Of a stretch of DNA of 64,000 nucleotides, positions 32,368-60,748 are shown piece by piece; the stretch's first letter is position 1, and the number at the start of each line of letters is the position of its first letter. Position numbers and translations under genes: made by a program. The DNA is from Kiritimatiellia bacterium (GTDB taxonomy: Bacteria; Verrucomicrobiota; Kiritimatiellia; JAAZAB01), in contig JAXGPF010000003.1 in NCBI GenBank assembly GCA_040767085.1, positions 160,001 to 224,000 of the forward strand. The letters run 5' to 3'. The notes under the pieces are model-generated. The model made no database searches. It was given only the letters and a program-made list of their open reading frames with translations, and was not told the DNA's origin.

Positions 32368-32510
32368 TTTTAGAAGATGATTATGGATAGGGCTCCGGCC
32401 TTTTGTCTGGTCTTTGTAGGCATGTTGTGATAACATTTTTTTACCGGGTTTCGGGGCGTCGGCCGGCGTGAAAGTTCCTGATTTCGCCGGTGAGAGTGTT
32501 CCTCGCCGGT

Positions 32511-38902: not shown

Positions 38903-38911
38903 CCCACTGCA

Positions 38912-42025: not shown

Positions 42026-42042
42026 AAACGACAGGTTTGGAC

Positions 42043-43608: not shown

Positions 43609-43896
43609 CCGATCTATCACCTTTCAATCACCCAACCGCCGGAATCCAGCACCCGTTCGCGCCACGCAAGTCCCCACAGTGTGAGCAATTGACTGATAAA
43701 CGACCGACATTCGGGCTGAATGGACCGATCCGGCATACCCCCTCATCCTTGTTTCCAATGAATCCACCGACAATCTATCGACGTTCCGGCCGAATCTACC
43801 GATCAGGCATAGGACTGCGCGGGCGAATCGAACGCGACCGGAAAGGGCGGAACCGGACATGAACTACTTTGTTATCAGCAAGAATGGAGACATGAA

Positions 43897-46746
43897 ATGA
43901 CTACACCCAAGCCCTGGATTGAATCGGTCCGCCTGCACCCCGACGTGCTCAAGGAAAACGCCGATACTGACATCTTCGCCCTGGATCTCGGCCCTCTGGC
44001 CGACGGGTCCGGCACGGTTGCGTCGGTGTACCGTGATGCCGAGTCCTTTTTCCGGGCGTCCTACGTGACAGCCGGGTTGAAGTCGCTCCTCGATGAGGTT
44101 CTTAAACGGCTGTCAGGCAAGGGCGGCGCGCCTGTGCTCAAACTCATGACGCCTTTCGGCGGCGGCAAGTCCCACACGATGGCAGCCCTGCTGCATGCGT
44201 CGCGCGACCGCAAGGCGCTCGACGTGCTGCCCGAAGCCAAGGGACTTGCCAGCCCGACCGACGTGCGTGTCGCTGTGGTGGACGGACAGTTCTTCAACGC
44301 CCAGCAAGGCAAAGAGGCCGATGGCGTCCGCGTGCAGACACTTTGGGGTTGGCTCGCGTTGAAACTTGGTGGGAAGGCCGGCTATGAAACCATGCGCGCC
44401 AATGACGAGGCGCGGGTGTCGCCCGGCGGCGACGACCTCTTGAAGCTCTTTGGGGACAAACCGAACCTGATTCTGCTCGACGAGGCGCTGGAGTATTTGA
44501 TCAACGCTGGCGGAGTGAAGGTTCTGAAGACCGATCTTCGGGAGCAGACGCTGAACTTCCTGAAGGAACTGTCTGTTGCCGTTGCCAATGCCCCTCGGAC
44601 TGCGCTGGTCATGGCGTTGCCATCGAGCAAACCAGGCGAGACTCTGCACCACTTCCAGTTGCTACAAACCCTGGACCACTTCATCGGACGCAAGGATTCT
44701 CTTCGCGAACCCGTGGAACAGGACGAGGTGTTCAGGGTTATTCAACGACGATTGCTGGAGAAGATGCCGGATGACGAGGTGGCGGGGCTGGCCGCGTCGG
44801 CTTACCAGGAGCTTTTCACGCAGATGCGGAAGGCATACGCGGCAAACCCGGCGGAAGAACAGCAAGCCGGTGAAGAGGGTATTCAACTCCGGGACCGGAT
44901 GCGGATGGCCTATCCGTTCCATCCGGCCATCCTCGACTTGATGCGCCAACGCTGGGCATCCTTGCCGGAATACCAGCGCACGCGGGGCGCCCTGCGCTTC
45001 CTGGCGGCCTGTCTGCGGGCGCACCACAAGGCGGGTAAGAGCGGCGTCGTTCTTGGCCCTGGTGACGTAATGCTTGCCGACCACGAGGTCCGGCGCGCCA
45101 TCATAAAGGAACTCGGCCTGATGAACCGGTTCGACGCCGTGTTCCAATCGGACCTTGTGGGCGCAAACTCGACTGCCGGGCGGATTGACAAACTCCGCGC
45201 CAAGTCCAACCCTGCCGAAATTGGCAAGAATGTTGCCCAGCGACTTGCGTCTGCGATCTTCCTCTACTCCTTCGGCGGGTTGCGGCGAGAGGGTGCGGGC
45301 TCAACGGAAGTCCTCCCTCCCGGCGTGTCGGAGGCCGATCTGCTTGCCGGATGTGTGGGACCCGATCTCGACAGTCTGACGGCGAAGGCGTGCCTGTCGG
45401 AACTCAAGCAGTCTTGTCTGTACCTGCACTTCGACGGCGTGCGCTACTGCTTCAAGCAGGACCCCAACGTCACGTTGCTGATCGAGCAGGAAGCCGATGC
45501 GGTGGCACGAGATGAGAGCCTCGTCACTACGCAAATCAGGACGATGCTCGAAGAGCGGCTGGCGGGGCATCATGGTGCCATCGCCTGGCCTGCGGCCTCA
45601 GGCGAGATCCCCGACGAGCAGCCACGTTTCCAAATCGCCTATCTTCCCCTCTCGTTCAGCGGGTTGTCGGCGAAGGCACGGGACGCCGCGGCGCTCGATC
45701 TGGTCGAGAAATACGGCGGCACCCCCCGCAAGTACCGGAATGGCCTCGCGCTGGCGATCCCGGCAACAGACCAAGCAGAAAGTCTGCGACGGGAAGTCCG
45801 ATACCTCAGCGCGGTGGAAAGGGTCAGCAAGGCGGCCAAGAAGCATAATCTGACCAAGGAACAGGCCGACGAACTACGGGAACGGAAGGCCACACATGGC
45901 AGTGCCGTCGAGTCCGCTTTCGGAAAACTGTACCCCGAGGTCTGGCTCCCGAAGCAGGAACAAGGGAATATCGGCTTCGAGAAGATCACGGTTGGCGGAC
46001 GCCCTCTTCAAACGACCGTGAACGCGCAGCACCTTGCGATGGTTTTCGAACGGAACATGGAACTGCTGACTCAAGTCCAACCTCGCGTCTTCTCCAAGTT
46101 GAACCCCGTCAAGGTTGTGGAACTCTTTAAACTGGGCGAAGAAGATCCGCCGAAGATGGGCATTCGATGCAGTGACATTGTGAGCGGGTTCTACTCGTTC
46201 CTTGGCTTTACCCGGCTCACGACCAAGGAGATCGTGCAGGCTGCCATTGCTCGCGGCGTTCAGGAAGGTGTTTTCGGGTACTTCACCGGTTCAGCCCCGA
46301 CGATGGACGCTGGTGGGAAGTACCAAGTCGCGCGGAGCAAGGTGCGGTTTGAGGTTCCACTTGCCGCGGATGAGGTTGACCTCGAGTCCGGTTTCATCAT
46401 GCTGCCAGCGGTAATCCCCGCCGATATGTCTGCCGGAGACCCCGCGCAGGCGGGGGCGGCCCCGATCTCAGGTACCACTCTACCGCCAGGACCGACTCCG
46501 CCTCCTGTACATGGAACCGGACCAGGCCCGATGCCGCCGCCACCGCCGACGGAGAACTACGTCCAGTTGGAATTTACCGCCAACCGGGACCAACTCTTCA
46601 CCGCATGGAACGCCATTGCCAACCTGGCCGACATGGCCGGCACGGTGAAAGTCAATATTACCGCCGAATCCAACAAAGGTTTTGACAAGAGCAAACTTCA
46701 AAACGGCGTCTTGGAACCGTTACGGGAGGCAGACCTGATCTCATAA
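43897..46746 (+). CDS. DUF499 family ATPase
   Basis: LHPDV..FALDL, TPFGGGKSH (Walker A), LILLDE (Walker B), AYPFHP, QRTRGALR. Confidence 0.88.
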   Translation: MTTPKPWIESVRLHPDVLKENADTDIFALDLGPLADGSGTVASVYRDAESFFRASYVTAGLKSLLDEVLKRLSGKGGAPVLKLMTPFGGGKSHTMAALLHASRDRKALDVLPEAKGLASPTDVRVAVVDGQFFNAQQGKEADGVRVQTLWGWLALKLGGKAGYETMRANDEARVSPGGDDLLKLFGDKPNLILLDEALEYLINAGGVKVLKTDLREQTLNFLKELSVAVANAPRTALVMALPSSKPGETLHHFQLLQTLDHFIGRKDSLREPVEQDEVFRVIQRRLLEKMPDDEVAGLAASAYQELFTQMRKAYAANPAEEQQAGEEGIQLRDRMRMAYPFHPAILDLMRQRWASLPEYQRTRGALRFLAACLRAHHKAGKSGVVLGPGDVMLADHEVRRAIIKELGLMNRFDAVFQSDLVGANSTAGRIDKLRAKSNPAEIGKNVAQRLASAIFLYSFGGLRREGAGSTEVLPPGVSEADLLAGCVGPDLDSLTAKACLSELKQSCLYLHFDGVRYCFKQDPNVTLLIEQEADAVARDESLVTTQIRTMLEERLAGHHGAIAWPAASGEIPDEQPRFQIAYLPLSFSGLSAKARDAAALDLVEKYGGTPRKYRNGLALAIPATDQAESLRREVRYLSAVERVSKAAKKHNLTKEQADELRERKATHGSAVESAFGKLYPEVWLPKQEQGNIGFEKITVGGRPLQTTVNAQHLAMVFERNMELLTQVQPRVFSKLNPVKVVELFKLGEEDPPKMGIRCSDIVSGFYSFLGFTRLTTKEIVQAAIARGVQEGVFGYFTGSAPTMDAGGKYQVARSKVRFEVPLAADEVDLESGFIMLPAVIPADMSAGDPAQAGAAPISGTTLPPGPTPPPVHGTGPGPMPPPPPTENYVQLEFTANRDQLFTAWNAIANLADMAGTVKVNITAESNKGFDKSKLQNGVLEPLREADLIS

Positions 46747-46747
46747 A

Positions 46748-47006
46748 CCTATATCCGGCAGTTGGCAAGTTTGCTGCAGATGCGCTTGCCTACGTTTCGC
46801 GCAAGCAGGCGGCGCGAAGGATGAAGCTGTATAAGCATACCGCGAATCCTTCGTCACAAAGCAGATGCAGTAAAATCGCCACCCCCTTCCGTGTTTAAAA
46901 TTCAGGAAACTTTTTTTACACCCAATAGGCGCAGGGTTATTCAAGCATAATGTATTTATTCTCAACCTTTTATCACGTTTCCTGAATTTCACATGCCGGA
47001 TATCCA
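46748..47006. mobile_element. Degenerate second copy of the 27691 MITE family
   Basis: Core GGCGCGAAGGATGAAGCTGTATAA..ATACCGCGAATCCTTCG..ACAAAGCAGATGC shared with ~27729-27786; ATATCCGGCA / TGCCGGATAT inverted ends. Confidence 0.6.
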
Positions 47007-47208: not shown

Positions 47209-48291
47209 ATGGCGCTTTGGAAAATTGGCGGCAACAAACCCCTAAAAGTAAAACAGACACACTTGCCTCAGGAAAAACTATTGGAGGAACATCTTGAAAA
47301 TTGGATTCAGATGGAACCAACCTTGTTGGGTGAGCCTCTTTTAATTATAGGCCGGCAAGTCATAATCCCCGATACCAAGGACAGATTGGACCTGCTCGCT
47401 CTGGACCCACAAGGTCAAGCCGTTATTATTGAGCTTAAACGCGGCAAGATTAAAGACCCGGTTGACATTCAAGCGCTTCGATACGCCAGCTACATTTCAA
47501 AATGGAAATTTGATCAATTTGAAAGCGTAGCACGTAACTTTTTCGGAAAATCGGGCGACTCGGAATTTAACTTTAACGAAGTTTTCGAAACTTTCTGCCA
47601 GGAATCCGGTTCTGATGAAGTCCCGGACTTAAACGAAGACCAACGGGTAATTATCGTTGGTTCTTCCGTGCGGGACAAGCTTGGTAGCGTCGCTTTATGG
47701 CTTAGAGATCATAATATTGACATCAAACTCATAGAGGTTACAGCCTATAAGGAAGGTGAAACAGTTTTTATCGAGCCCAATGTCATTGTTCCGCTTCCTG
47801 TCAGTAGATTTGCTAAAGTAGGGAAAGGGCCTACTAAAGGCACAGCGGCCTGGCAAACAGATGGGCAAACTTGGCATCTTGAAAAACGATGCAGCCCAAA
47901 AACAAAAGAGATGTTAATGGTGTTCGACAAAGACATCCGAGAAGCTCTTCCTGTTGATGGTCCACATTGGGATCAGAAACAATATGTTGCTTATCGCAAA
48001 AACAATTATAATTGGTTGTGTATCCATACTCTGCCAAAAACGCTGATTTTTGATTTTAATGTGAAAGCCGGCACGTTTAAGTCCGATATTCTTGCCAAGA
48101 CTTTGGGTGTCGTGAAATTCGATAAAGATGAAACTATGTCGGAAAAACTGAACCTGCCAAGTTCTGTTACTGTCCGCAACAGAAACGAAACGCGCGATCG
48201 TATTCGTCTTCGCGTGAAAGCTGATTTTGATCTCAAATCAAAAACATTTATCCAGTTTATGACCCAGGCATTTGAATTATGCCCGAAGTAA
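47209..48291 (+). CDS. NucS/DUF91-like PD-(D/E)xK endonuclease with C-terminal DUF5655-like domain
   Basis: E..LE.WI, RLDLLALD..G..VIIELKRG...QALRY; AAGGAG RBS. Confidence 0.75.
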   Translation: MALWKIGGNKPLKVKQTHLPQEKLLEEHLENWIQMEPTLLGEPLLIIGRQVIIPDTKDRLDLLALDPQGQAVIIELKRGKIKDPVDIQALRYASYISKWKFDQFESVARNFFGKSGDSEFNFNEVFETFCQESGSDEVPDLNEDQRVIIVGSSVRDKLGSVALWLRDHNIDIKLIEVTAYKEGETVFIEPNVIVPLPVSRFAKVGKGPTKGTAAWQTDGQTWHLEKRCSPKTKEMLMVFDKDIREALPVDGPHWDQKQYVAYRKNNYNWLCIHTLPKTLIFDFNVKAGTFKSDILAKTLGVVKFDKDETMSEKLNLPSSVTVRNRNETRDRIRLRVKADFDLKSKTFIQFMTQAFELCPK

Positions 48292-48405: not shown

Positions 48406-49317
48406 ATGTTCGAAAGACTATTCGCCAAGCGCGGGTTGTCGTTGGATCGGTTACGGGTTTTACTGGAAGTCCGCGAGGCGGGCAGCGTCGTCAAGGCGGC
48501 AGGGGGGGATCCGGTCCGGCAAAGCCAGTATAGCCGGCAATTAAAGGAACTGGATGAATATTTCAGTGTGGAATTGACCTGTCGCAAGGGGCGGCATCTG
48601 GTATTGACCGCCGCGGGCGAAGAATTAGCAAAATTGGTGCAAGAGCATTTTGTGGCACTTGGCAATTTCAACAGGCGCGTGGCAAACGAACCGGTGCCGG
48701 TCTTCATCGGCGCGGGTGAAAGCCTGATCCACTGGCTGTTGTTGCCGCTTGCCGGCAAACTACAGCGCGAATTGCCCGGGATCACCCTGCGAATGATCAA
48801 CCTGACTTCCACTATGATCAATCAAAAATTGGTTGATCGGGAGATAGACCTTGGCATTCTCCGCAAAGATGCCATTGCGCCCACCATTTTGCATCATGTG
48901 ATTGGTAAAATCGTTTACTCGCTATATGCCCCGAAAGCATTGTTCTCGGGCTCTGTCGCTAAAAAGACTGCTCTGTTGAATAAACTGCCGGTCGCAACAA
49001 TGCCCGGCAATTCATCGTTCGGACGGCATTTGCACCAGTTGGCTGAAAAAGCCAATATCCGTCTCAATGTCCGGCTTGAATGTGACACTTTTACCGGATT
49101 GGCACAGGCGGTCCAAACCGGAGAATACGCGGCCATCCTGCCCGATCTGGCCGCTTACGCCATGGATGAGCAAACCGACAAAATCACTTTGCCACTGCTT
49201 AAACCGTTGACGCGCGAAATAAGTCTGGCCTGGCTGCAACGCAAGGTTGATTTATGTCCCGAATGGGAAAAAACACGACAGTGGCTTACACAAAATCTTA
49301 ATATGACTATAAAGTAA
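48406..49317 (+). CDS. LysR family transcriptional regulator
   Basis: LDRLRV..AGS..KAA..QSQYSRQLKEL..LT.AGE HTH; IDLGI substrate-binding domain. Confidence 0.9.
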   Translation: MFERLFAKRGLSLDRLRVLLEVREAGSVVKAAGGDPVRQSQYSRQLKELDEYFSVELTCRKGRHLVLTAAGEELAKLVQEHFVALGNFNRRVANEPVPVFIGAGESLIHWLLLPLAGKLQRELPGITLRMINLTSTMINQKLVDREIDLGILRKDAIAPTILHHVIGKIVYSLYAPKALFSGSVAKKTALLNKLPVATMPGNSSFGRHLHQLAEKANIRLNVRLECDTFTGLAQAVQTGEYAAILPDLAAYAMDEQTDKITLPLLKPLTREISLAWLQRKVDLCPEWEKTRQWLTQNLNMTIK

Positions 49318-49418
49318 TGTGTTATGCGATATTAGCACTGGATAATAATATCGGCAATTGATACATTGCCCGTGTTGAAACAAAAAAGCAGAAACAGTAT
49401 TAGCGGGCTTTATTATTT

Positions 49419-51023
49419 ATGGCCGCAGCAACAGATCAAAATATCGGCATGACAGTGTTCGAACTGCAATCGTTTGAATCCTGGCAAAATCGGATAGAAG
49501 CGGCCGCACAATCCGCCGGCGCCGGCATCACGCGCAAGGGGGCCGGTTGCCAGCTCTGGATGCCGAACCAGTTACTTCCCTTGCGCAAAACCAACTTGCA
49601 TTATGCCGATGGCGTTAAAATTTTCCGGGAATGGCTTGGCCCACGCCGCAACGCATTAGCCATTATCCCTCATCGCGTCTATTTTGAACCCGGCGCAAAT
49701 ACCCCCAGTATCAAGCCGGAACGGATTTTGATTGAAGGCGCACGTCCGGCATTGCCCAGCCCGGACAAACGAATCAGCTCATGTTTGGAATGGGCCGGGA
49801 TTTTATCAAAACATATTGATGGATTTGGTCCTGACCCTATCACGGTCGGACGAGTTCGGCATGATTTACACAAATCAACGCAATTGATTTTTGGCGGCGG
49901 CGCAGTTGTCACACCCGGTTCTAAAATCAGTTTGGCACTGATGAGCCACGGAGGCTATTCCACGCCTGCCCGGCTTCAGATTGAACTCGTGGCGCCCTCC
50001 GCCGCCGCCGGCAAAACAAAAACATATCAAACACTTTTGGCAAATGCCTTGAAGCGCTGTAAATGCCACGGCGTGATCTCGATGTTGACTTACGACAAAT
50101 TGCTGACACGCTTACAATCCGGAACGCCGGTAGCGACGCCCGGCACTTGTATTCTGCTCGCTGTAACCGGCAAAAAAGGCCTGCCGCTGGCCCCGGAATC
50201 CGAGACGCTGATAAATCTCATGGCTAATTTCAACATCCCGTTTCGCATGTTCTCCGTTGACAATCCGGCGCTGAACTGGTCGGCTTTGGATCAAGCCGGA
50301 TCGTTGATTACCGGTGCGGGCGGCATTCCATTCATCACCAAATTACCCTGGCCGGATGATATTGGGGAGCCATTCATTCTGGGAGTGGATGTTGGGCACC
50401 CGCCGACAGGCGAGGAAAGCCAGGTTGTCATTAGTTTAATGGATCATCAAGGTGTTTTGCTGGGGAGTTGGCGCCAATCCCAGCCGCGTGATGAGACAAT
50501 TCACACCGAAACGCTGCAAAATGGATTGACGTGGGCGCTTGAAAAAGCACGGTCAAATATTGCAAACGCAACCCCATCATTCCTGGTGCTGCGCGATGGC
50601 AGGTTGCATAAAGGCGAAAACCCCACATTTTACAGCCAGATACTGGGGCCAAAGACAACATTGATTGAATTTTCCAAACACAACACGCCTGAAATGTTCA
50701 TTATGGGTGCATGCCCGGCATCCGCCAAAGCCGGAACAGAGTGCCTTTTAACCGGTAGTTCCACACCATTTATCACTCCGGTGTCAGCGCGCATGAGCAG
50801 TGATTTATCCCGGACATTCAAAATCAACATGCCACCGGCATGGGATGGCCTGGGGCTTGGAATTGACAGAGTCAGCGAGATTGTGGTAGGATTATCTTAT
50901 ACTTCGGGACTCGGGTTAGCGCCACACGCATTACCCGGCCCAATTTACTGGGCGGACGGCATTGCCGCCATTTGCGAGCACAACCATCAATTTGCGGGGC
51001 AGAATATAATGGAGGGAAGATGA
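49419..51023 (+). CDS. Prokaryotic Argonaute (L2-MID-PIWI), 534 aa, putative DEDD catalytic tetrad
   Basis: LIFGGG/GYSTP L2 linker, AGGIPF, ILGVDVGH (D324), RDETI (E359), VLRDGR (D393), EFSK, LPGPIYWADG (D513). Confidence 0.8.
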   Translation: MAAATDQNIGMTVFELQSFESWQNRIEAAAQSAGAGITRKGAGCQLWMPNQLLPLRKTNLHYADGVKIFREWLGPRRNALAIIPHRVYFEPGANTPSIKPERILIEGARPALPSPDKRISSCLEWAGILSKHIDGFGPDPITVGRVRHDLHKSTQLIFGGGAVVTPGSKISLALMSHGGYSTPARLQIELVAPSAAAGKTKTYQTLLANALKRCKCHGVISMLTYDKLLTRLQSGTPVATPGTCILLAVTGKKGLPLAPESETLINLMANFNIPFRMFSVDNPALNWSALDQAGSLITGAGGIPFITKLPWPDDIGEPFILGVDVGHPPTGEESQVVISLMDHQGVLLGSWRQSQPRDETIHTETLQNGLTWALEKARSNIANATPSFLVLRDGRLHKGENPTFYSQILGPKTTLIEFSKHNTPEMFIMGACPASAKAGTECLLTGSSTPFITPVSARMSSDLSRTFKINMPPAWDGLGLGIDRVSEIVVGLSYTSGLGLAPHALPGPIYWADGIAAICEHNHQFAGQNIMEGR

Positions 51024-51048
51024 GCGATACAGAGAAAAAACAATTTCA

Positions 51049-52557
51049 ATGACACAAGTGCGGATAAATAACTTTAAATGTTTTGAAGAGGCTATTGTGC
51101 CGTTGCGCCGCTTGACCTTTATTTATGGACAAAACAGTTCCGGTAAAAGCACGATTTTTCAGGCAATTAATCTGATCCGGCTGGTCATTATGCAACTTAA
51201 TAAAAAAGAGAGTAGATACAGCAAAAACAAGGAACAAGACAAGTCGCGCGAAGATGAAGATATCGGAATGGATGCTTGGAAACGGATCCCTTGGTTTCGC
51301 GGTGGCATTTCAGCCATGCAACGGGACAAAAACGATCCCATTAAAATTGGCTTTACATTGAAATTGGAAGGAGATGGCACAGAAGGAAGCACCTATATTA
51401 CCACAGATATGTCTGTTGGTAATAAGTGGGATTTAGGAAAACACGGCAATTCCCTGCCGGACAAAATTGTTTTTGGCTTTCAATATGGCAAACTTGATGC
51501 GTTCCGCGACAAGGATAACAAATATTTAGATTTAACGATCACGATAAACAATCGCGTGCCAGAAAACCAACAAAGCGTTTTTAGCCGGCAATTCGGCTTT
51601 GTGCAAGTGTCACCGACCCTGTTGGATTGGTTTTGCAGGGAATATAGTCCCGCAAGCGAGCAAATATTCCGGGATTATTTTAATAGCCCATTACCCTTGA
51701 ATTGGGGCGAGGTGCCCTTTTTTAAATCCTTTAACAAAAAGCCTAAATATCCCAATAATGATCATGCGTTTAATAAGGCCTACAAATGGGTTAATGGTTC
51801 GCTTGAACGCGCGTGGGGAGAAATAGAGGATTATCTTAAACCAGCACTCTTGATGGGGTTTTATTCCGGACATATATCCGCCGATGAACATTATATAGGG
51901 CACGATATTCGAAATACTAACGTAAGATTTCATTTAAAAAAAGAATTTGATGATTTCCTAAATAATGAAAAGGTTATAAACCAGGTAAACGAAGCTCTCA
52001 ACCTTCTGGATACTCCACATCGTCTGGATTCAAAGAAAGGCATTCTTGATCTGCGCAAGCAAACATCTGAAAAAGGGAGCGTTTTGACGGAAGTTGGTTA
52101 TGGTATCCAATACCTTGTCCCGAGGCTTTTGTTGCTTTTTGGCGGAGAGCATCCACTATGCATGATCGAGGAGCCAGAAGCACATGTGCATCCGCGTTTA
52201 CAAGCCAAGCTTGGTTCATTGTTTTTAAAACAATCAGCATCTGCTGATATGATGCGGCAACTTATAATAGAAAGTCATAGTGAAAATCTTATTTTGCAAA
52301 TTAAACGCAATATTCATGATATGGCTGAAGCGGATGCAGAAACAGCGAAAAAATGGGCTGATAACATTTTGGCGCTTTACGTTGATTACTCACAGGACAC
52401 TGCAACGCCAGATATTGAAGCCGACGCGGAAAAGCCACAGGCAAACGTTGAGGCAACTCCCCGGATATCATACATCCGAATTGACAGCGAGGGTAATTTT
52501 ATGGATTATTGGCCTAAAGGATTCTTCCCTGAACGTCAAGAAAACCTTTACTACTGA
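51049..52557 (+). CDS. ABC/AAA_15-type ATPase with DUF3696-like C-terminus
   Basis: INNFKCF, YGQNSSGKST, VGYGIQYLVP, IEEPEAHVHP, IESHSE, IDSEG...WPKGFF. Confidence 0.88.
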   Translation: MTQVRINNFKCFEEAIVPLRRLTFIYGQNSSGKSTIFQAINLIRLVIMQLNKKESRYSKNKEQDKSREDEDIGMDAWKRIPWFRGGISAMQRDKNDPIKIGFTLKLEGDGTEGSTYITTDMSVGNKWDLGKHGNSLPDKIVFGFQYGKLDAFRDKDNKYLDLTITINNRVPENQQSVFSRQFGFVQVSPTLLDWFCREYSPASEQIFRDYFNSPLPLNWGEVPFFKSFNKKPKYPNNDHAFNKAYKWVNGSLERAWGEIEDYLKPALLMGFYSGHISADEHYIGHDIRNTNVRFHLKKEFDDFLNNEKVINQVNEALNLLDTPHRLDSKKGILDLRKQTSEKGSVLTEVGYGIQYLVPRLLLLFGGEHPLCMIEEPEAHVHPRLQAKLGSLFLKQSASADMMRQLIIESHSENLILQIKRNIHDMAEADAETAKKWADNILALYVDYSQDTATPDIEADAEKPQANVEATPRISYIRIDSEGNFMDYWPKGFFPERQENLYY

Positions 52558-52564
52558 TTTTGCT

Positions 52565-53752
52565 ATGCTCAATTATTGCACCATAGACCCATTTCTCGTT
52601 ACGATGGCGAGAACACCAACAATCCCCTCATCGGGTAACAATATACAAATATCTACTACTTCGGAACCAGCTCCCTCGTCTACTGTCCCCAGACAGGTTG
52701 GTCACAGTTCAATCCGATATTTTCTGAAGAGAGTTGCCAGCCGGCACATTTTGTGCGACTTTTTCCTGGGAGTGAGTGGATCCGGAACGTGTAAATATCG
52801 AAAATATTTTGAGGACATAGTTTTTGCCGGTGAAAATCATTTTGCCGTCTACTGGCGGGAATTTTCTTTGGCTCGACATTTTGAGCGATTAAAAACAGAT
52901 TTTACGAATTTCCGTGATAAGGATCGCCTTGCGAAAATATGCCCGGATGTTTGCCCAAAATCATCTGCGGGTGCTGATGACTGGGGCAACTGGGCCATGA
53001 AAATGGGCTACCTGTTGGCAGGATGCGCCGCCGACGATATAACAATAATTATTGCGCACCATAAGACGGTTGAAATGCTGAATGCGCTACTTAACCATTT
53101 TAAATGTGCGCTTACCCCTGAAACAAGCGCTTATATTGAAAAGTATCGGCGAAACTGCGTAACCGTAGAGAACCAAGCTGAAGCAAGCGGCTTGAAGTTG
53201 AGCGGCAACTTGGAGGTCCTCGAAAATTCGTGGTTTTTGCTTTCAAGCGTGGAACGGTTTGACCGCCGGATAAATCTTTCAATAGGCCTAAATTTAGCGG
53301 GAATACCGGTGACCGAGTTTTTAAAATTGTTAAACCCTATTCGCCAATGCTTTCCGCATGTCTACGCAATACAATCCTCCAAGCCACCAAATAAAACCTT
53401 GGCTTTATGGAAACAAAACAATTTTAATATCAATATAATTACCACTGATAGTTTACCAAAAGAGCATAAAGGGCTTTGGCATGATCGGTTTATTGTATTT
53501 GCTTCACATCCTCGAGAGCAGGGCATGCGATCACCACACCGGTTTGTAGCGTTGGTATTTTCAGCGCCATTTGAGCAGATATTTTATGTGCCTGAACAAC
53601 ATTTTATGCGCCATAATACTTTTTATTTGCGCCAAGGTACTTGCCTTTTGCGCTGTGACAGTGATTGTTCTAATACTCCAGGGTCTCATGAAAATATAGC
53701 AAGCTTTCTTGCAAATACTTCAGCTACGCTCCCCCCTTTATCTGAACCATGA
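52565..53752 (+). CDS. Hypothetical protein with C-terminal HDRF motif (possible PLD-like nuclease)
   Basis: ATG 7 nt after the ATPase stop; WHDRFIVF; the ORF-track start at 52280 overlaps the ATPase and is rejected. Confidence 0.55.
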   Translation: MLNYCTIDPFLVTMARTPTIPSSGNNIQISTTSEPAPSSTVPRQVGHSSIRYFLKRVASRHILCDFFLGVSGSGTCKYRKYFEDIVFAGENHFAVYWREFSLARHFERLKTDFTNFRDKDRLAKICPDVCPKSSAGADDWGNWAMKMGYLLAGCAADDITIIIAHHKTVEMLNALLNHFKCALTPETSAYIEKYRRNCVTVENQAEASGLKLSGNLEVLENSWFLLSSVERFDRRINLSIGLNLAGIPVTEFLKLLNPIRQCFPHVYAIQSSKPPNKTLALWKQNNFNINIITTDSLPKEHKGLWHDRFIVFASHPREQGMRSPHRFVALVFSAPFEQIFYVPEQHFMRHNTFYLRQGTCLLRCDSDCSNTPGSHENIASFLANTSATLPPLSEP

Positions 53753-55233
53753 AGACAAACGCTATGCCTGTCTCAAACAAAGTATCGTGTGGCATCGGAA
53801 ACTATCCTGATGCTTTATTACGGCTATCTCAACAGCATCAGCCTTTTTGCGATTGGCTCTTGCTCGGACGTTACATTCTTCTGGGAGACGATGGAATTTC
53901 CAATGATGAGCGCAAGGATATCAAGCGGACGAAAGAATATCAACAATTTGCCAATATGTTTTTTGATTTAATCCAGAATATCGAGCGTAATACTCTTGTT
54001 ATTAACTCCGAAACCGCAGACATCCTGACTGGTCTTGCGGCATTTTATGTTTCTTTACGATGTGTTGTGTCGTACAAAAAGAATGTCATGATCAAGGCCA
54101 TGCAATACAACATATTGTTGTATAATTCTATAATATCGGCAATGAAGAGAAACAAAATACACTCATCTATATTTGCCGAAAACATAGTCGCTGGATGTGA
54201 AATTGTGCTCAAGGCAACCGCTAATGACAAGAAGAAAACCCCAGAAGCGCTGGATGCCGGCGTTGATCTGTTGGGTAAATTAATGGAAAGAGTTCCAGGT
54301 GCAACGCCGCTGGGTGACGCCATATTGCGTTATATACGTGATTGGCAGGCGCTGGGCTCCATTGAGGATTCCTGGCTTGAACAAAAACGTGATCAGGCTT
54401 TGTTGCGTTATGTAGGGATAGACGACAACTATTTAAGCAAATATGAAGAATTCAAGGCATGGACGAATTATCACCCTGATGATAATGGTGCAGCAAAAAG
54501 ACTTTTCTTTTTTGCTAAACCTTTAGTTGAAGTGTTTTGCCGGGAAAAACGTTATGAAGACGCCGCTAAAGTATGTGTTGATATTTATAATTTGCACATT
54601 CTTTCAGACACATACAAGCAAGCCATGTTTTGCTTGTTTTACGACTCTTTAACCTTGGATTTGTCTAACGCCAAATGTGAGATCAACCTCGCCCTAAATG
54701 CGCTTATAATTATTTTTGACAAACTAAAACCGGCGGATAATTTTGTTTCAGCCCATTTTGCTGAATTAAAATTATGGGCTGCTATTGGACATATTCAGGC
54801 AAGACGTTCAAAAGACAACGCATCCATTATTAAAGATTTGCCAGAACCCTTGCCCATATCTGAACATGCTCAAAATAAAATTGCCTGGGAAATTTATCGC
54901 CGTTGCAAGCTTTGTATAAAAACTGACCCAATAATGGTTATTGACATGCTTGAACTATATGCTCATTTATCGGAAATAGAAAAGCCGTCTTTGCTTCATT
55001 CCATGATGTTGCAATACGCAACACGTGTTGGTTCATCTTGGACTGGTTTTATTAAATTTATGCGTACACGAGATATGGCTACTTTCCGCCCGGAGGATTT
55101 CAAGACGACAGTTTATGGCAATCGCACATATAACAGTTTGGTTGATAACACTATAAAATGCCTATATCAAACAATAAAACATCAAAAATGGCGTATTATG
55201 GAATCGGCAAGACCCACCGTCAAGGCAATATAG
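53749..55233 (+). CDS. Alpha-helical/TPR-like protein; N-terminal half of a split TPR/OB-fold protein
   Basis: ATGA overlap with the upstream gene; PSLLHS...FIKF...FRPEDF...YNSL recalled from TPR+OB (DUF7017-like) proteins. Confidence 0.6.
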   Translation: MKTNAMPVSNKVSCGIGNYPDALLRLSQQHQPFCDWLLLGRYILLGDDGISNDERKDIKRTKEYQQFANMFFDLIQNIERNTLVINSETADILTGLAAFYVSLRCVVSYKKNVMIKAMQYNILLYNSIISAMKRNKIHSSIFAENIVAGCEIVLKATANDKKKTPEALDAGVDLLGKLMERVPGATPLGDAILRYIRDWQALGSIEDSWLEQKRDQALLRYVGIDDNYLSKYEEFKAWTNYHPDDNGAAKRLFFFAKPLVEVFCREKRYEDAAKVCVDIYNLHILSDTYKQAMFCLFYDSLTLDLSNAKCEINLALNALIIIFDKLKPADNFVSAHFAELKLWAAIGHIQARRSKDNASIIKDLPEPLPISEHAQNKIAWEIYRRCKLCIKTDPIMVIDMLELYAHLSEIEKPSLLHSMMLQYATRVGSSWTGFIKFMRTRDMATFRPEDFKTTVYGNRTYNSLVDNTIKCLYQTIKHQKWRIMESARPTVKAI

Positions 55234-55239
55234 GCCGTA

Positions 55240-56699
55240 TTGGACTATCCCCAAAATATCCTGTGGGATTTTGCGCGGATAGTGTTATTTTCTAAGAAAG
55301 TGAGTGAAAAACGGATTTTTCTGACCATCTGGAAAGTGAAATAGTGGTCTCCAACTGGAAATCCCGTATAATTGGGGTTGAACCAACCAAGAAGGAGACC
55401 ACCGGAATGAATAATAGTCAGACGGCATTCAAATTGCGATCTCAACTTTTAAAATATTTGGGGATATTTTCACCCCATTTTTCCAAACCAGCATTGGCTT
55501 TTCTTGGTGACATGCTCTATGGGATCCAGGCATCCAAAGATATCAAGCTGAGTTGCATTGGCAGGGGCCTGGACGAGGTGATTTCGCTCAAGAAAACCGA
55601 AGAGCGATTAAGCCGGAATCTGGGATGTGAGGGGCTGGCTCAGAGGGTATCGGATTGTTTGGCGTGTGAAGGCGCCAGGCACATAGGGAATGACACCTTG
55701 ATTGTGATAGATCCGACCGATATTCGGAAGCTCTACGCCCGGAAAATGCCATATTTGGCAAAAGTGCGAGACGGGAGCAGCGGCGAGATCGGCAACGGGT
55801 ATCATTGCGGTGTTGCAGTGGCTTGCGAAAGCGGCGGACGCAGTATAGTCCCTTTGCATCTGCGCCTATGGTCGAGCACCGCGCCTGATTTCAAAAGTGA
55901 AAACGATGAGATTGAACAAATCGTCAGCACTATCTGCGCGGGTGCAAAACGACGCGGGATTTACGTTGTGGACCGCGGCGGCGACCGTGACAAGCTGTTT
56001 AATGTGTTAATTGACAGACGCTTGCGATTCATTGTGCGTTTGATTGGCCACCGCCATCTGTTGTGGAGAAAACGCCCCATCCTGGCTGAAAAGCTAGTTG
56101 GTAAATGCCGGATTTCTCACGTTGAAACCATCCGTCGTGAAACTGCCGAAGGTGAAAAAATTTACCGGATTGAATACGGTGCAATTAATGTGTTTCTGCC
56201 GGAACATCCCGATAAACCATTGCGCATGGTCGTTGTGAAGGGATTTGGAGCAAAGCCCATGATGCTCCTGACGGACTTGGCCGGTGGAGATTCCCGGAAA
56301 GGTCTCTGGCAGGTCATTGAAGGATACCTGAGTCGCTGGCGGGTCGAAGATGCGATTCGCTACATCAAGCAAAGCTATCGCCTTGAGGACATCCGCCTGA
56401 TGGATTACACGCGGCTTCGCAACATGATGGCCATGCTGCTGGCCACTGTTTTCTTTGCTTCCGTGTGGCTCGGCAAATCTTTACGCAAAAGCATTCTGGT
56501 CGGCAACATCACCCGCGTTTCCAAGCGACTTTTCGGTGTAGTGGAGTTCCATTATTACGCTATCGCTGACGGCATTGCCGCCTTGTTGCGCCGTTTCGGA
56601 AAATGGCACGGCGCCTGGAATGGCCCCGCCCGAAACACTGTCTCACACCAATTGGAATTAGCCTTGTTTGATTCAGGATAAAAAATGGGGATAGTCCAA
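55240..56699 (+). mobile_element. Complete IS4 family insertion sequence, 1460 bp
   Basis: Perfect 14-bp TIR TTGGACTATCCCCA; 13-bp target duplication AATATAGGCCGTA (55227-55239 and 56700-56712). Confidence 0.95.
55407..56681 (+). CDS. IS4 family DDE transposase
   Basis: IVIDPTD, VVDRGGD, YLSRWRVEDAIRYIK (YREK signature); AAGGAG RBS. Confidence 0.92.
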   Translation: MNNSQTAFKLRSQLLKYLGIFSPHFSKPALAFLGDMLYGIQASKDIKLSCIGRGLDEVISLKKTEERLSRNLGCEGLAQRVSDCLACEGARHIGNDTLIVIDPTDIRKLYARKMPYLAKVRDGSSGEIGNGYHCGVAVACESGGRSIVPLHLRLWSSTAPDFKSENDEIEQIVSTICAGAKRRGIYVVDRGGDRDKLFNVLIDRRLRFIVRLIGHRHLLWRKRPILAEKLVGKCRISHVETIRRETAEGEKIYRIEYGAINVFLPEHPDKPLRMVVVKGFGAKPMMLLTDLAGGDSRKGLWQVIEGYLSRWRVEDAIRYIKQSYRLEDIRLMDYTRLRNMMAMLLATVFFASVWLGKSLRKSILVGNITRVSKRLFGVVEFHYYAIADGIAALLRRFGKWHGAWNGPARNTVSHQLELALFDSG

Positions 56700-56872
56700 A
56701 ATATAGGCCGTAAAGTATACGGAAGCACTTGATGAAGCATCCGTAGAGCTATAACCATAATACACCCACTCCCGTATAGACGGGGGTGGGTGATTTTTAA
56801 AGAGATCTCTTTGCTTGCTCTTGTATAGTTTAGCCTTCGTAATTGGTATTGCCAAATATTCAGGATATTAAG

Positions 56873-58147
56873 ATGGATAATGAATCAAAAACCACTGCGA
56901 AGAAGGATGACGCAGAACATCGCCTTGCGGAGTTGCATAACACGCAAAAAGTAAAGAATACCGGTGACGCGCCTTCAAAAGCCGGAAATGATGACTTCGA
57001 TATAGAGATCAAAAAACAGACCGCCGATACTGAAGAAGATTACCAGGCGCTAATTGACGCATACGAAGACGAATGCGCCCCAGTTGATGAATTGGATTGC
57101 CCGGACGATAGCACAGACGATATTTCTGATTTGTCTTTCGCGCTCGATTTTGTCCAACGCTATTACAAGCAGTGTTCACAACAAACATACGCGGCATATT
57201 ACTACGCAAAACTGCTTTTATTCGCTGATCATAAAAATCAGGCACAAACAGTGTTGCTTGAAGACGCGATTAGTCTTTCCAACAAATATTGGTTTTGGAC
57301 AACGCTCGCTGATACTTTCCAAAACAATGACGACAAAAAACGCCAGGCATGTCTATGCAAGGCGATATTGACAGCCCGGCCCGAAGACGCAAAATATCTA
57401 AATCCTTTGCGCAGGGATTTGCGCGACATATTTAAAGACAACCCAGAATATAACACTGAATCCGACAATTTACCGCTTTATCAGAAATACGCTATTCCAG
57501 CCGATGCAATCGCGACTACAACTCTTAATTGGTTGCCGGCTGTTGTGTTGGGCGTCAAGGATGGAAGCAATATCCGCGTATTATTTCGACAAGATGATAT
57601 GTATTTGTGCGCGAAAGGCACACTAAACGACAACAAATGGTCACACCTTAAACGCGGCGCTTCTATTAGCGTAAAAATCACGGGGAACGCACCTGACATC
57701 ATGGTTCTTTGCATTAAAATACGACGTGCATCAGACTGGAGTATTTTGCCATGGGAGTTTGCAGTTGTTGTGCAAAAATATTCAGCTCGCAAAAGCGTAA
57801 TATTGGCTTTAGTAAAGGGGAAAACACTGATTGTGTCCTCGCGGATATGGCGGGAAGCGGTGAATTGGGAATTAGGCGACATACTGCAAATTAAAATCTT
57901 GCGCGCGGATGGCGAGGAAATAATTGTCGCCTCGAAAATATCACATAAAACCCCCGATTTTGTAAAAAAGACAACCAGTGTCGTTTTGCAAATTAATAAT
58001 GAAGGATGCGCTTGGGTTGATGATGATACTTTTCTGCCGCGCAGACTGACCGCATAGCTTGGTTTAATGAAAGGCGACAAGGTAAGCCTGACAGCGGTTG
58101 AAACCGCGCAAAACAAGTGGGAAACTATTCAAGCCGATAAAAATTGA
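56873..58147 (+). CDS. Acidic linker + TPR + OB-fold-like protein (C-terminal half), with in-frame TAG at 58055-58057
   Basis: YYYAKLL..A, YWFWTTLAD, ACLCKAI TPR; beta-rich C-terminus; the frame continues 29 codons past TAG (LGLMKGDKVSLTAV...) to TGA 58147. Confidence 0.6.
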
Positions 58148-58151
58148 TTTT

Positions 58152-58260
58152 GAGACGCTGTAGAGGTGTGTTTGAGGCCGATGAATGCAATTGCTCGGCC
58201 GGTTATTACGGGTCAGTATGACCCAATGTCGATTCGATGTTAAATCCTCTGCAGCGTCTC
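58152..58260 (+). ncRNA. Candidate structured ncRNA associated with the RT
   Basis: 15-bp closing stem GAGACGCTGTAGAGG / CCTCTGCAGCGTCTC (one U-G pair on + strand) enclosing hairpins GGCCGA..TCGGCC and GGGTCA-GTA-TGACCC. Confidence 0.65.
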
Positions 58261-58268
58261 TTTATTTT

Positions 58269-59987
58269 ATGAGTGAATTGATCGCCAGCGTAACATTGCA
58301 TAAAGTTGCTAATATTCTGATAGGGTTGCGCCTAAAGGATATGCGCGCGCGCCATGATTGCCTTTTTTATTATCAAATCAGTGATGCGGCGCCTTCCGAA
58401 GAGGCCATGCGCGAGTCCGGCGCAGCGAATTATTTGCCGCCACGCCGGCAATGGATACGTCCTGCCCGAGCGGACAGAGCCGGTTTGAATCACGATGCTG
58501 TCGTGCGCAAAGGGATATGGAAAACAATAGCCACACATTTGCGTGGTGGCACGCTCGACAGCACCCTCTGGGGACAACAACTTCTTTCTTTACACGCTGA
58601 AATACAGGAAGCGTTTAATGCGCCTGAAAACACTGTGTTTACACCACCTGACGTTTTGTTAATAAAAAAAGCTGAAACCGGCAAGTATCGCATAATGGCG
58701 CCCTGCGCAAACATAAAGGAGCGTATAATCAGTGGTATTCTGGCGCGCTATTTTGAAGATTTAATTGAATCAGTATTGGATGATTCGTGTTATTCCTTCC
58801 GCATGAACGGCCAAACTCTCCACGACGCAATTTTGAATCTACAGACATATAGCCAAAACAACACCGACAAAATGCTGTATGTTGCAGAATGCGACTTGCG
58901 TGGGTTTTTTGACAGTCTATGCCATGATGTTGCCATTGATGCCGTAAAATATTTGGCTTCTATTCGCCACATAACCATTGATCCCGGAGCCATGGTTTTG
59001 CTGAATTCACTTTTGCGCTCATATTCTTTTCCGGGTTATGCGTTACCTAAAGCACTTGAAAAATTAAAAGATAATACGACAGGTTGCATTGACTGGTTGT
59101 CTCCACAAGAGCGCAATAAAATATATGGCAAAATTGCAGATACCGCCATAGGTATCCCGCAGGGAAATCCGATTTCTCCTGTTTTGGCAAATGCAGCATT
59201 AACTTTTGCGGACAAACAAGTTAAATCCGTATTGGGAACCGAAGGCTTTTACGCACGCTATTGTGATGATATAATTCTTTTACATCCTGACAGAAAAATA
59301 TGTGATTCAGGCTTGAAAGCTTATTATCACGCCATTACAAAACTTCGTCTGCCGGCACACCCAGCGGAGATTGTTGTAAAATACAGCAAATCTCATTACA
59401 ATAAAAAATCCCGCAAACCTTACCCTTGGGGTGACGATAAATCCATGGAAAAGGCTATGCCGTGGATACAATTTGTTGGGTATCAACTGCACAGGGACGG
59501 AATAATTAGAATTCGCAAACAAAGTATAAATAATCAAAAAATGGCAATAAACAAAGTCGTTGCTACAGCTCGGAAGATTGTTCACAAATCTAAAAAAAAC
59601 AATATTCCGTTGAAACTGGACCCGAAAAAAATATATTGCAAAGTGATAATGCGCCTTGTTCGCGCAGGGCTTGGCGACCGCCGGCCTAAAGCAGGCACAC
59701 ATCCGATCGCTGAGCCATGCTGGATTGACGCATTCCCTCTGATCGAAAGGAATCCATGGACAGAAAAGCAAATGCGGGAATTGGATCGCCATAGAGAGAT
59801 TGCATCGCGTAAATTTAAATATTGGCTCGTAAATAATGACAATTTTGTCGAAAACAATGAGTTTTCTGGCCGAAATAAAGAAAAACGCCCTGAACCATTT
59901 TATGGTGCCCCATACAGTTATTATTGCGCGTTGGATAGAGAAAAGAACAGAATCAGGGATTTTAATGCAAATTATGGCAATATTTAA
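58269..59987 (+). CDS. Reverse transcriptase of unassigned (UG/DRT-like) class, 572 aa
   Basis: IKK...KYR, CYSFR, ECDLRGFFDSL, GIPQGNPISPVLAN, YARYCDDII, FVGY; start set at ATG 58269, after the hairpin. Confidence 0.9.
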   Translation: MSELIASVTLHKVANILIGLRLKDMRARHDCLFYYQISDAAPSEEAMRESGAANYLPPRRQWIRPARADRAGLNHDAVVRKGIWKTIATHLRGGTLDSTLWGQQLLSLHAEIQEAFNAPENTVFTPPDVLLIKKAETGKYRIMAPCANIKERIISGILARYFEDLIESVLDDSCYSFRMNGQTLHDAILNLQTYSQNNTDKMLYVAECDLRGFFDSLCHDVAIDAVKYLASIRHITIDPGAMVLLNSLLRSYSFPGYALPKALEKLKDNTTGCIDWLSPQERNKIYGKIADTAIGIPQGNPISPVLANAALTFADKQVKSVLGTEGFYARYCDDIILLHPDRKICDSGLKAYYHAITKLRLPAHPAEIVVKYSKSHYNKKSRKPYPWGDDKSMEKAMPWIQFVGYQLHRDGIIRIRKQSINNQKMAINKVVATARKIVHKSKKNNIPLKLDPKKIYCKVIMRLVRAGLGDRRPKAGTHPIAEPCWIDAFPLIERNPWTEKQMRELDRHREIASRKFKYWLVNNDNFVENNEFSGRNKEKRPEPFYGAPYSYYCALDREKNRIRDFNANYGNI

Positions 59988-60748
59988 TTACCCGAAGATT
60001 TTTCCCATTCCCCGGCATCGGCAATATGCACGAAACACCGGCTGGTGTGGGTGGTGTCCCAGTCTGTTAAATCGTATGGATCCTGGGCATGTTTTTGCTT
60101 TTTCCGCCGGCCAGGCGCCAGCCCCATGCCATACGCTGGGCTGGGTTCGCCAACCATGTTGTATCTTGTCTTATTCCGGATCGGAAACCGCCGAATAAAT
60201 GCCGCGCTTTTCATGGGAAATACCATGATTTGCAGTCCGCCATAGACTGACTGCCCTGTTATTTGCTCTTCCACGGTTTGTCCGGATCCCATCGGCGCCG
60301 CCACAAATTGGCGAACGATTCCGGGGCCGGAACAATAGCCGTCTAATTTACGCTGTTCGGGAATCACCAGATAATTCTGGGGATGTCGACTGAGCGTGTT
60401 TTCCCATCGCTGACCGGTAACGGCATTGATTTTGCCGGCAGCCACCAGCACGGCAAACGGATACGCGGAACCACTATCCTCAATGTATGCCGAGTTAAAG
60501 GTCAAGCGCAGCGCTTCTGACTGAGCCATGGGCAGCATGACCCCGCCATGCTCCAGCCAGGCGGCGGAGATTTTTCCGGCAAAATCATCTACGTGGTATA
60601 AAGGGCAACGGTCCGTGGCATTTGGCAGGACATCGCCTTTTCTATCATCGCGCGAGCGCCGCGTGCGCTGAAATGCCACCCGCATTGCAGCGCTGGGATG
60701 GACTTCGGGAAACGAGAATACGAGTTGTTTATTTTCGATTAAAATCAC
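59984..60748 (-). CDS. Conserved hypothetical protein, probably 3'-truncated or degenerate
   Basis: GTG start with AAGGA RBS; FQRT, GGVMLPM.QSEA, GKINAVTG, RQFVA.PMG, RCFVH motifs; its stop overlaps the RT stop. Confidence 0.6.
   Translation of the reverse strand: MILIENKQLVFSFPEVHPSAAMRVAFQRTRRSRDDRKGDVLPNATDRCPLYHVDDFAGKISAAWLEHGGVMLPMAQSEALRLTFNSAYIEDSGSAYPFAVLVAAGKINAVTGQRWENTLSRHPQNYLVIPEQRKLDGYCSGPGIVRQFVAAPMGSGQTVEEQITGQSVYGGLQIMVFPMKSAAFIRRFPIRNKTRYNMVGEPSPAYGMGLAPGRRKKQKHAQDPYDLTDWDTTHTSRCFVHIADAGEWEKSSGN

Follow-up and report, generated by a model that had tools for sequence, protein, structure and literature searches.

A LysR, Argonaute, ATPase, HxR, TPR-OB and reverse transcriptase gene row in a Kiritimatiellia bacterium as a candidate composite defence operon

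Genes and RNA of the row

The locus described here lies in a stretch of 64,000 nucleotides (the window) from a Kiritimatiellia bacterium (assembly GCA_040767085.1, contig JAXGPF010000003.1, positions 160,001 to 224,000 of the forward strand), and unprefixed coordinates refer to this window. Between positions 48406 and 59987, a row of genes on the plus strand encodes a LysR-type regulator, a compact prokaryotic Argonaute (pAgo), an ABC/SMC-like ATPase, a protein with an H-x-R motif (HxR protein; open reading frame ORF6), two parts of a TPR-OB protein (ORF7 and ORF9), a structured non-coding RNA (ncRNA) and a UG39-like reverse transcriptase (RT). Two arrays recur in other genomes and metagenomes: LysR, compact pAgo, ATPase and HxR (array A), and (LysR), ATPase, HxR, a TPR-OB protein of the TOTE type (TPR, OB, TBP, Effector), structured ncRNA and UG39-like RT (array B). 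The row in the window is the union of both, which share the LysR, ATPase and HxR core.

The layout given in a preliminary description of this DNA, with all genes on the plus strand and tight junctions, was confirmed. The first four genes are separated by 101, 25 and 7 nt, ORF6 and ORF7 overlap in an ATGA at 53749-53752, and the reported interruption is an insertion sequence (IS) at 55240-56699 between ORF7 and ORF9. The 8 nt given between RNA stem and RT also stand, with the 3' arm of the stem ending at 58260 and the ATG at 58269. The 4 nt given between the preceding gene and the stem hold only for ORF9 read through its in-frame TAG (58055-57) to the TGA at 58145-47, from which this figure arose; four T then precede the stem start at 58152. 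With ORF9 as called, the spacer to the RT is 211 nt. The caveat that the first two genes look richer in GC was likewise correct, the GC content at third codon positions (GC3) being 0.58 in LysR and 0.55 in pAgo against 0.38-0.44 from the ATPase through the RT. The row is not an assembly artefact, because contigs from four metagenomes of other studies bridge its junctions (LysR-pAgo, pAgo-ATPase, ORF6-ORF7 and ORF9-RT), the listed pieces carrying no differing letters.

The LysR-type regulator (48406-49317) was recognized by Pfam HTH_1 and LysR_substrate. Its relatives (32-60% identity) adjoin pAgo in all five close relatives of the pAgo, the most similar among the pAgo loci being that of locus L003 (60% identity), and they also adjoin three RT arrays (L017, L025, L028) and, in L152, the ATPase-HxR pair alone. 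No paralogue was found in the same genome by tblastn (E<=1e-3). The regulator is specific to this kind of locus.

The pAgo (49419-51023, 534 aa) was recognized from its modelled fold and conserved tetrad, the Pfam PIWI match being below threshold and the PADLOC match weak. Built on 19 sequences, the AlphaFold2 model reaches a pLDDT of 91.6 and aligns with human AGO1 (hAgo1) at a VIA-align Z of 25.8 over 496 of 534 residues (model 4-530 on chain 33-856) and with TtAgo at a Z of 24.8; Foldseek matched it to Siwi (E 3e-23). The part aligned to Argonautes extends from the N domain through PIWI to the C-terminus, and the N-L1-L2-MID-PIWI scaffold is present. The tetrad is DEDD-like: across the 19 sequences, which reach down to 21% identity, D324, D393 and D513 do not vary, and conservation of E359 is at least 90%. 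In a profile alignment, the motifs GvDlGH (D324) and lrDGR (D393) align with the catalytic motifs of MpAgo and AaAgo, and we take E359 and D513 to belong to the tetrad from their motif position. Upstream of the MID-like alpha/beta region the model has only about 185 residues, and the length of the protein falls about 150 aa short of TtAgo. The model thus points to a probably PAZ-less, otherwise full Argonaute that may be able to slice. A short pAgo of the SPARTA, SPARSA or SPARDA type was ruled out, since the tetrad is conserved, the alignment starts at the N domain, and the neighbours are the ATPase and HxR. The family is rare: a search of 5.8 billion proteins gave 11 clusters, and 185,579 species genomes yielded 14 loci. 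Close homologues include P0002, at 88% identity to the pAgo, and P0013-P0016, at 45-54% identity to the RT of the row. A complex prediction for pAgo and ORF6 scored 0.01 and, run without controls, is uninformative on binding.

The next gene (51049-52557) encodes the ATPase, which matches Pfam AAA_15 (9.6e-22) and AAA_21 (1.9e-19) and, as best PADLOC models, NsnB (1.1e-36) and AriA (1.3e-24); its translation shows a Walker A motif (GQNSSGKST) and the sequence IEEPEAHVHP. It is followed by ORF6 (52565-53752), for which general scans gave no family match and PADLOC no model at E<=0.01. This protein, called the 'HDR' protein in the preliminary description, carries an H-x-R-[FY] motif common to all 12 proteins that follow such ATPases in the studied loci. 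H306 and R308 are invariant in these 12 partners and at least 90% conserved in 76 family sequences; the motif of ORF6 itself reads H-D-R-F, with no D at +4. Homology came from motif and profile, hhalign of ORF6 against four partners giving no match (probability 0.7). The profile finds 254 representatives among 1.84 billion proteins, and the family is small, occurring in 11 of 401 genomes sampled from the phylum. In a model of moderate quality (pLDDT 67), residues 1-205 match PIN folds with Z of 6-7.3 (Nmd4 at 7.3, VapC, SMG5/6), and residues 208-395 match PLD folds (SauUSI Z 6.0, phospholipase D 5.6, NucT 5.3, MITD1 5.3, Zucchini 5.2). Pfam MIT_C matched weakly in 2 of the 76 family members, the profile had no match among PDB sequences, and Foldseek gave none for the ORF6 model at E<=0.001. 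With moderate confidence, the modelled fold of HxR consists of a PIN-like and a PLD-like part; this fold call is a lead rather than proof, because the Z values are middling. HxR is a predicted nuclease. An HxR domain also occurs C-terminally in proteins of 660-750 aa, beside proteins of 800-1350 aa, in four contexts (L155-L158), and this looks like a different system.

ORF7 (53749-55233) and ORF9 (56873-58057 to the TAG, the frame being open to 58147) are, judging from a profile built on 19 TOTE-type TPR-OB relatives, the two halves of one ancestral TPR-OB gene. ORF7 residues 350-480 match profile positions 150-287 (E 7e-28), ORF9 residues 83-392 match the contiguous positions 288-641, and the corresponding segments of L128 meet directly at residues 253/254. 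The N-terminal, TPR-like half (ORF7) matches PADLOC PDC-M16B (1.8e-16), and the half with DUF7017 and S1/CSD (OB) domains (ORF9) matches Pfam DUF7017 (3.9e-15). BLASTP found no similarity between ORF7 and ORF9, nor between ORF7 and the TPR-OB protein of L003; the two ORFs, being different parts of one protein, are not paralogues. Apart from the IS, about 457 nt between the halves have no counterpart. They take in the final 14 codons of ORF7, a spacer rich in stops and the first 82 residues of ORF9, which are acidic. The spacer, which has stops in every reading frame, occurs nowhere else in the genome, and the halves lie in different frames. The spacer also contains a terminator-like hairpin (56763-56792; to 56801 with the ATTTTT), which has 13 pairs, 9 of them G-C, and was the top site in a terminator scan of the region.

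The IS, on the plus strand, is of the IS4/IS701 type and has a DDE_Tnp_1 transposase. Its terminal inverted repeats are perfect over 14 bp, and the target duplication measures 13 bp (55227-39, 56700-12). ORF7 keeps its own stop codon (TAG, 55231-33), which lies inside this duplication; the IS therefore inserted between genes without truncating any of them. The IS is single-copy in this assembly; its depth of 50-190x against 2-5x for its flanks in three of the four metagenomes indicates that it is multi-copy in those communities. No metagenome contig joined across the IS site, but at a flank depth of 2-5x an IS-less allele may have gone unseen. One contig links the IS end back to the IS start with 9 extra letters, which may reflect a circle, a tandem copy or an assembly effect. 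A further lesion is the premature TAG of ORF9 (58055-57), which lies within the last S1/CSD domain, the frame staying open for 30 more codons; when it is read through as X, the profile match reaches position 664 and gains 10.6 bits. The codon is TTG in one 640-nt metagenome contig (run X4, depth 4.4) and TAG in the other three runs, so that two alleles may circulate. The TOTE arm is damaged here, with the TPR-OB gene split in two, an IS in the gap and a premature stop. The genome (95% complete) gave no match to TBP-TOTE and only generic helicase-motif matches to the PDC-M16A helicase. Relatives of DUF7017 were found in neither of two sampled genomes of the same genus and in none of ten of the family.

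The ncRNA proposed in the preliminary description ahead of the RT (58148-58268, plus strand) proved real on the evidence of folding, compensatory changes and recurrence 5' of other RTs. The ORF9-RT spacer folds with z = -4.8 against shuffles. At its core, a closing stem of 15 bp (58152-66 with 58246-60) encloses three hairpins; it is followed by UUUAUUUU, a U-rich tail, and the RT start codon. Eight other loci in which a TPR-OB gene precedes an RT share this architecture but differ in the sequences of the arms. Compensatory changes affect 9 of 14 closing pairs in a four-sequence alignment that includes the window, and a covariance model from these four sequences gave 7 matches in total in 0.93 Mb, including L016 (E 1e-12), L057 and L173, which lie immediately 5' of the RT on the same strand. 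Rfam gave no match in 55000-60200. U-rich runs flank the closing stem, and a conserved U-rich loop was not identified. Since a MAFFT alignment of all eight ncRNAs was poor, the subtypes were analysed apart; in subtype B covariation is weak (4 of 14 pairs). In a second subtype (L017 7076-7222, L025 7923-8067, L028 9829-9961, L132 3170-3310), the closing stem is formed by GGAGGUGG pairing with CCACCUCC. One arm of this stem is Shine-Dalgarno-like, and the opposite arm presumably resembles the 3' end of 16S rRNA.

The last gene of the row encodes the RT (58269-59987; the ORF opens at 58185), which carries YCDD and matches PADLOC RT_UG39 at 6.8e-114 over profile positions 9-538 of 541. The ATG at 58269 was taken as its start because the UG39 match begins at ORF residue 39 and the N-termini of homologues align from M29. 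A FastTree phylogeny of 78 RTs has a 98* split between 48 rows, with all 10 PriCT-linked RTs, and 30 rows, with all 11 TPR-OB-linked ones; the latter group includes the window RT and its four closest homologues, together with 15 further rows that have neither partner or no telling context. By sequence, the window RT is thus placed in a TOTE-linked clade of UG39-like class 2 UG/Abi RTs. A VirE + PriCT-2 gene was not found in the window, and scores against NCBIfam retron RT models (24-40 bits against cut-offs of 235-450) do not identify it as a retron RT. No RT relatives were found in four sampled genomes of the same genus or 32 of the family.

Recurrence and surroundings of the arrays

Loci were gathered by anchoring on pAgo, RT, TPR-OB or HxR. 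The pAgo-anchored set has 14 loci, five of them close relatives; the RT-anchored set has 88, comprising 80 metagenome loci (of 416 RT matches), four from a class-level RT search and four from a phylum-level TPR-OB search; and the HxR-anchored set is the 401 genomes sampled from the phylum. Among the 14 pAgo loci, LysR is present in 5 (all five close relatives), ATPase and HxR in 6, within a few genes of pAgo and spaced as in an operon, and TPR-OB in 1 (L003). The ATPase-HxR pair is near pAgo in four of the five close relatives, and its spacing at pAgo in L001, L003 and L005 is 6 nt or an overlap (pAgo-ATPase 6 nt in L001). On the RT side, a TPR-OB gene lies directly upstream of the RT on the same strand in 11 loci, which represent 9 distinct cases, L173 being an additional one. 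HxR, and the ATPase too where the contig allows, directly precedes TPR-OB, ncRNA and RT in L017, L025, L028, L132 and L173 (5 of 9 loci with upstream context). By the called ORFs, HxR adjoins or overlaps TPR-OB in L017, L025 (1 nt), L028 and L132 (9 nt), whereas about 300 nt lie between the two in L173. The ATGA overlap of ORF6 and ORF7 in the window follows this conserved pattern.

The two arrays were not seen together in full elsewhere, no RT being found in the 14 pAgo loci and no pAgo in the 88 RT loci. Among the 11 genomes with HxR, pAgo and TOTE genes occur together only in the window's own genome and in G188, which holds L003. Its order is LysR, PDC-S02, pAgo, ATPase, HxR and TPR-OB, followed by a convergent helicase-TBP gene; it is the closest parallel to the row, with the TOTE helicase-TBP in the place of the RT.

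Other arrangements of the same families were also observed. In L010, a distant pAgo relative lies among type III CRISPR accessory genes (CARF-RelE, Csx1-like, RAMP protein), flanked by two separate ATPase-HxR pairs. In L046 and L089, which belong to another RT subclade, the order is ATPase, HxR, second ATPase, two unknown genes, a DprA-like gene, an ORF of 99-106 aa and RT, with no TPR-OB. In L002 (11614-16121) and L004 (11397-15660), pAgo is followed by a protein of 1077-1159 aa (TPR-rich in L002) and then one of 333-362 aa; these proteins replace or precede the ATPase pair and may be an alternative partner module.

The row is part of a defence island that, by PADLOC and domain scans of the window, also contains PDC-S11, an integrase and an Hma system with further genes lying inside it. 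The integrase, of the tyrosine type (30709-32367), HmaA (33039-36587), HmaB (38912-42025) and HmaC (43897-46746) are located upstream of the row. Embedded among the Hma genes are a Schlafen AlbA_2 and NB-ARC STAND NTPase (36584-38902) and a DUF4062-HATPase_c_4-wHTH protein (42043-43608). The GC content of these upstream genes (30709-47000) is host-like, and that of the studied row is not. A PADLOC 'Aga/pAgo' ('Aga/PNTD') match of the ORF at 41779-43608 as an APAZ partner was rejected, this ORF being the DUF4062-HATPase_c_4-wHTH protein that starts at 42043. The PDC-S11 gene (47209-48291, NucS-like N-terminus, GC 0.43) directly precedes LysR, and a homologue with 28% identity lies at L007 12400-13425, 1 kb downstream of a distant pAgo relative. 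At the other end, a 254-aa gene on the minus strand (59984-60748) is convergent with the RT; its 58%-identical paralogue lies on contig C28 of the genome (137011-137784), 12 kb from a weak ATPase match (C28 125222-125500).

Interpretation of the row

From the recurrence of rare families side by side, in fixed order and, in most of the lineages, with overlapping or near-touching junctions, we take the ATPase-HxR pair to be functionally tied to pAgo as well as to TPR-OB, ncRNA and RT. The claim of a multi-gene system made in the preliminary description therefore holds in part: the arrangement is non-random and the ATPase-HxR pair recurs with each module, but a partnership of pAgo with RT is not seen (0/88 and 0/14). 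That description had named, as what would refute its proposal, that homologues of pAgo, ATPase and RT never co-occur elsewhere and that Ago guides are independent of the RT; in the loci gathered, pAgo and RT occur together nowhere else, and the ATPase-HxR pair occurs with each. The reading we put forward, at roughly even chances of being correct, is that of a composite defence operon in which one shared ATPase/nuclease effector would be served by two sensor modules.

ABC ATPases in PARIS, Gabija and retron Ec78-Septu hold or license their nuclease, and in retron Ec78 the multicopy single-stranded DNA (msDNA) keeps PtuAB inactive. In the composite operon, for which gene identities, folds, synteny, ncRNA covariation and lesions come from the data and all biochemical steps are proposed by inference, the hub would consist of the LysR regulator, the ABC-type ATPase and its constant partner HxR, flanked by two input modules, the compact, probably PAZ-less pAgo and TPR-OB with ncRNA and UG39-like RT. 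By analogy, the ATPase might hold or license HxR as the executioner nuclease. The Argonaute would sense invader nucleic acid through guides, and the RT-ncRNA complex, with TPR-OB as nucleic-acid binder, could signal infection through its complementary DNA (cDNA) product. Either signal would then free the HxR nuclease, and LysR would set expression. Because the TOTE arm is damaged and no TBP-helicase was found, the arm of Argonaute, ATPase and HxR is the one most likely to be still working.

Several observations weigh against this composite operon. The pAgo and the RT occur together only in this window. The drop of GC3 from 0.55 to 0.40 at the pAgo/ATPase junction suggests that the two parts were joined recently, possibly when two related arrays recombined. 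The modules are also separable: in 8 of 14 loci pAgo lies beside other genes, TPR-OB precedes the RT without the ATPase-HxR pair in 4 of 9 loci, and the pair occurs without other modules in L151, L153, L154 and L159 (with LysR only in L152). The HxR model is of only moderate quality, with middling Z values and an HxR motif instead of the catalytic HxK of PLD enzymes, and the HxR tree has no resolution, ORF6 sitting on a very long branch. Moreover, the frequencies are conditional on the anchors used, and related loci are non-independent.

Part of this evidence would fit a retron-like guard in which the RT-ncRNA product keeps ATPase and HxR inactive, pAgo having no role and having been inserted upstream through recombination of two LysR-ATPase-HxR arrays. 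The order ATPase, HxR, TPR-OB, ncRNA and RT recurs without pAgo in five loci, GC3 is uniform from the ATPase through the RT, and, in the available sections of PMC12475279, a type I-A retron is an assembly of RT, RNA, DNA, HNH nuclease and four SMC-family ATPases. The adjacency of pAgo and ATPase is itself conserved, however, and the RT is not a retron RT, its scores lying far below the model cut-offs; we regard this explanation as doubtful. Gating of the ATPase/nuclease pair by the RT, which had been suggested for the row, nevertheless agrees better with the synteny than guide supply does. It is unlikely that the row is a mere stack of three or more autonomous systems (LysR-pAgo, ATPase-HxR, and TPR-OB-ncRNA-RT) that travel together in a defence island without cross-talk. 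Such stacking is suggested by the occurrence of each module alone, the integrase, Hma genes with their embedded genes and PDC-S11 in the same island, the GC3 break between pAgo and ATPase, the terminator-like hairpin before ORF9, and the restriction of pAgo with RT to this window. It does not readily account for the rare pAgo, HxR and TOTE-RT families adjoining with constant order and orientation across several lineages, with mostly abutting or overlapping junctions, nor for the same LysR subfamily accompanying all array types.

A single integrated pathway, in which the slicer Argonaute and the TOTE-type RT would jointly drive the LysR-controlled ATPase and PIN-PLD nuclease, with cDNA templated by the ncRNA or by the invader as guide or as nuclease licence, is very improbable; if true, it would connect bacterial Argonaute immunity with reverse transcription. 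Still more improbable is the narrower form, in which the Argonaute would take up as guide DNA a cDNA that the RT copies from its ncRNA or from invader RNA bound to TPR-OB. In its favour are the single co-directional row, an Argonaute with slicer residues and apparently without PAZ, the junction of the pAgo array with a TOTE module in L003, and the production of single-stranded DNA (ssDNA) from their ncRNA by the related class 2 RTs DRT2 and DRT9, as given in the available sections of Tang et al. (2025; PMC12483538). Against it, no second locus with pAgo and RT was found in either anchored set, all relatives of the pAgo clade that were seen lack an RT, the composition breaks between the halves, the TPR-OB gene beside the RT is damaged, and a terminator-like hairpin separates ORF7 and ORF9. 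The supply of RT-made guides to the Argonaute, as first proposed for this row, is therefore not supported.

If the composite operon is correct, one ATPase-nuclease pair apparently common to two unrelated sensors would exemplify a modular 'plug-in' defence architecture. The two arrays are of interest separately as well. Array A, in which rare compact Argonautes with slicer residues are tied to an ABC ATPase, a PIN/PLD-like partner and a dedicated LysR, adds a partner class to Argonaute-effector systems. Array B, in which a UG39-like RT clade is wired to a TOTE TPR-OB protein and a covarying ncRNA, often behind the same ATPase pair, gives this RT group a defined system.

Comparison with known systems

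A described system of pAgo with RT was not found in the literature searched, including a search directed at UG39, nor was any literature under the names 'PDC-M16' or 'DUF7017'. The closest published pAgo case is APAP, which the available sections of Cheng et al. (2024; PMC11442185) describe as a long-A pAgo and a PLD-family nuclease, AgaP, encoded at a short distance. In both systems an Argonaute with catalytic residues has a close partner gene, whose product is PLD-like by its modelled fold in the row and a protein of the PLD superfamily in APAP, where it is thought, according to these sections, to be an added nuclease. The row differs from APAP so described in its 534-aa, probably PAZ-less Argonaute from a rare bacterial clade in place of a long-A pAgo, in the HxR motif in place of HxK(x)4D and the extra PIN-like domain of its partner, in the ABC ATPase that always accompanies this partner, and in the LysR gene.

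On the other side of the hub, ORF7 and ORF9 correspond to the TPR-S1/CSD protein of TOTE systems (PDC-M16B, DUF7017, and the S1CSD-TOTE region of relatives). TOTE was introduced by Aravind, Iyer and Burroughs (2022), here as reported in the available sections of PMC12458937, where RNase H domains are said to be frequent in it. Compared with TOTE as given there, the window and genome yielded no SF1 helicase-TBP, ncRNA and RT follow the TPR-OB gene, and this gene is split and truncated. The RT has UG39 as its best PADLOC model and is, like UG39, a stand-alone RT of about 570 aa without a fused domain. In the available sections of Mestre et al. (2022; PMC9226505), UG39 (formerly UG28b) is defined by a VirE + PriCT-2 neighbour (cluster 64), and the evidence for defence is inconclusive; the window RT, in contrast, is in the TPR-OB-linked group, across the 98* split from the PriCT-linked RTs. 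With DRT9 (UG28 RT and ncRNA), as it appears in the sections of Tang et al. used above, the row shares a class 2 RT preceded on the same strand by a multi-hairpin ncRNA with U-rich stretches flanking the structure. It differs in that no Rfam or sequence match and no U-rich template loop were identified, and in the additional TPR-OB and ATPase-HxR genes.

The combination of an ABC/SMC-like ATPase with a nuclease-type partner is shared with retron I-A (Ec78, PtuA/PtuB) and PARIS (AriA/AriB), the retron also having RT and ncRNA in its operon; here, however, the partner is PIN/PLD-like and not HNH or Toprim, and the RT is of the UG/Abi type. The PtuA and AriA models match the window ATPase through generic ATPase motifs only. 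Membership in retron type I-A was ruled out, as the retron RT models are far below their cut-offs, PtuA scores 23 bits against 500, and no HNH partner was found. Membership in PARIS was ruled out as well: the AriA model matches the ATPase at 1.3e-24, but ORF6 is PIN-like and PLD-like by its modelled fold and matches no PADLOC model. Seen against these systems, the locus joins an Argonaute-effector system and a UG/Abi RT-ncRNA system, both of known kinds, through one shared pair of ATPase and predicted nuclease.

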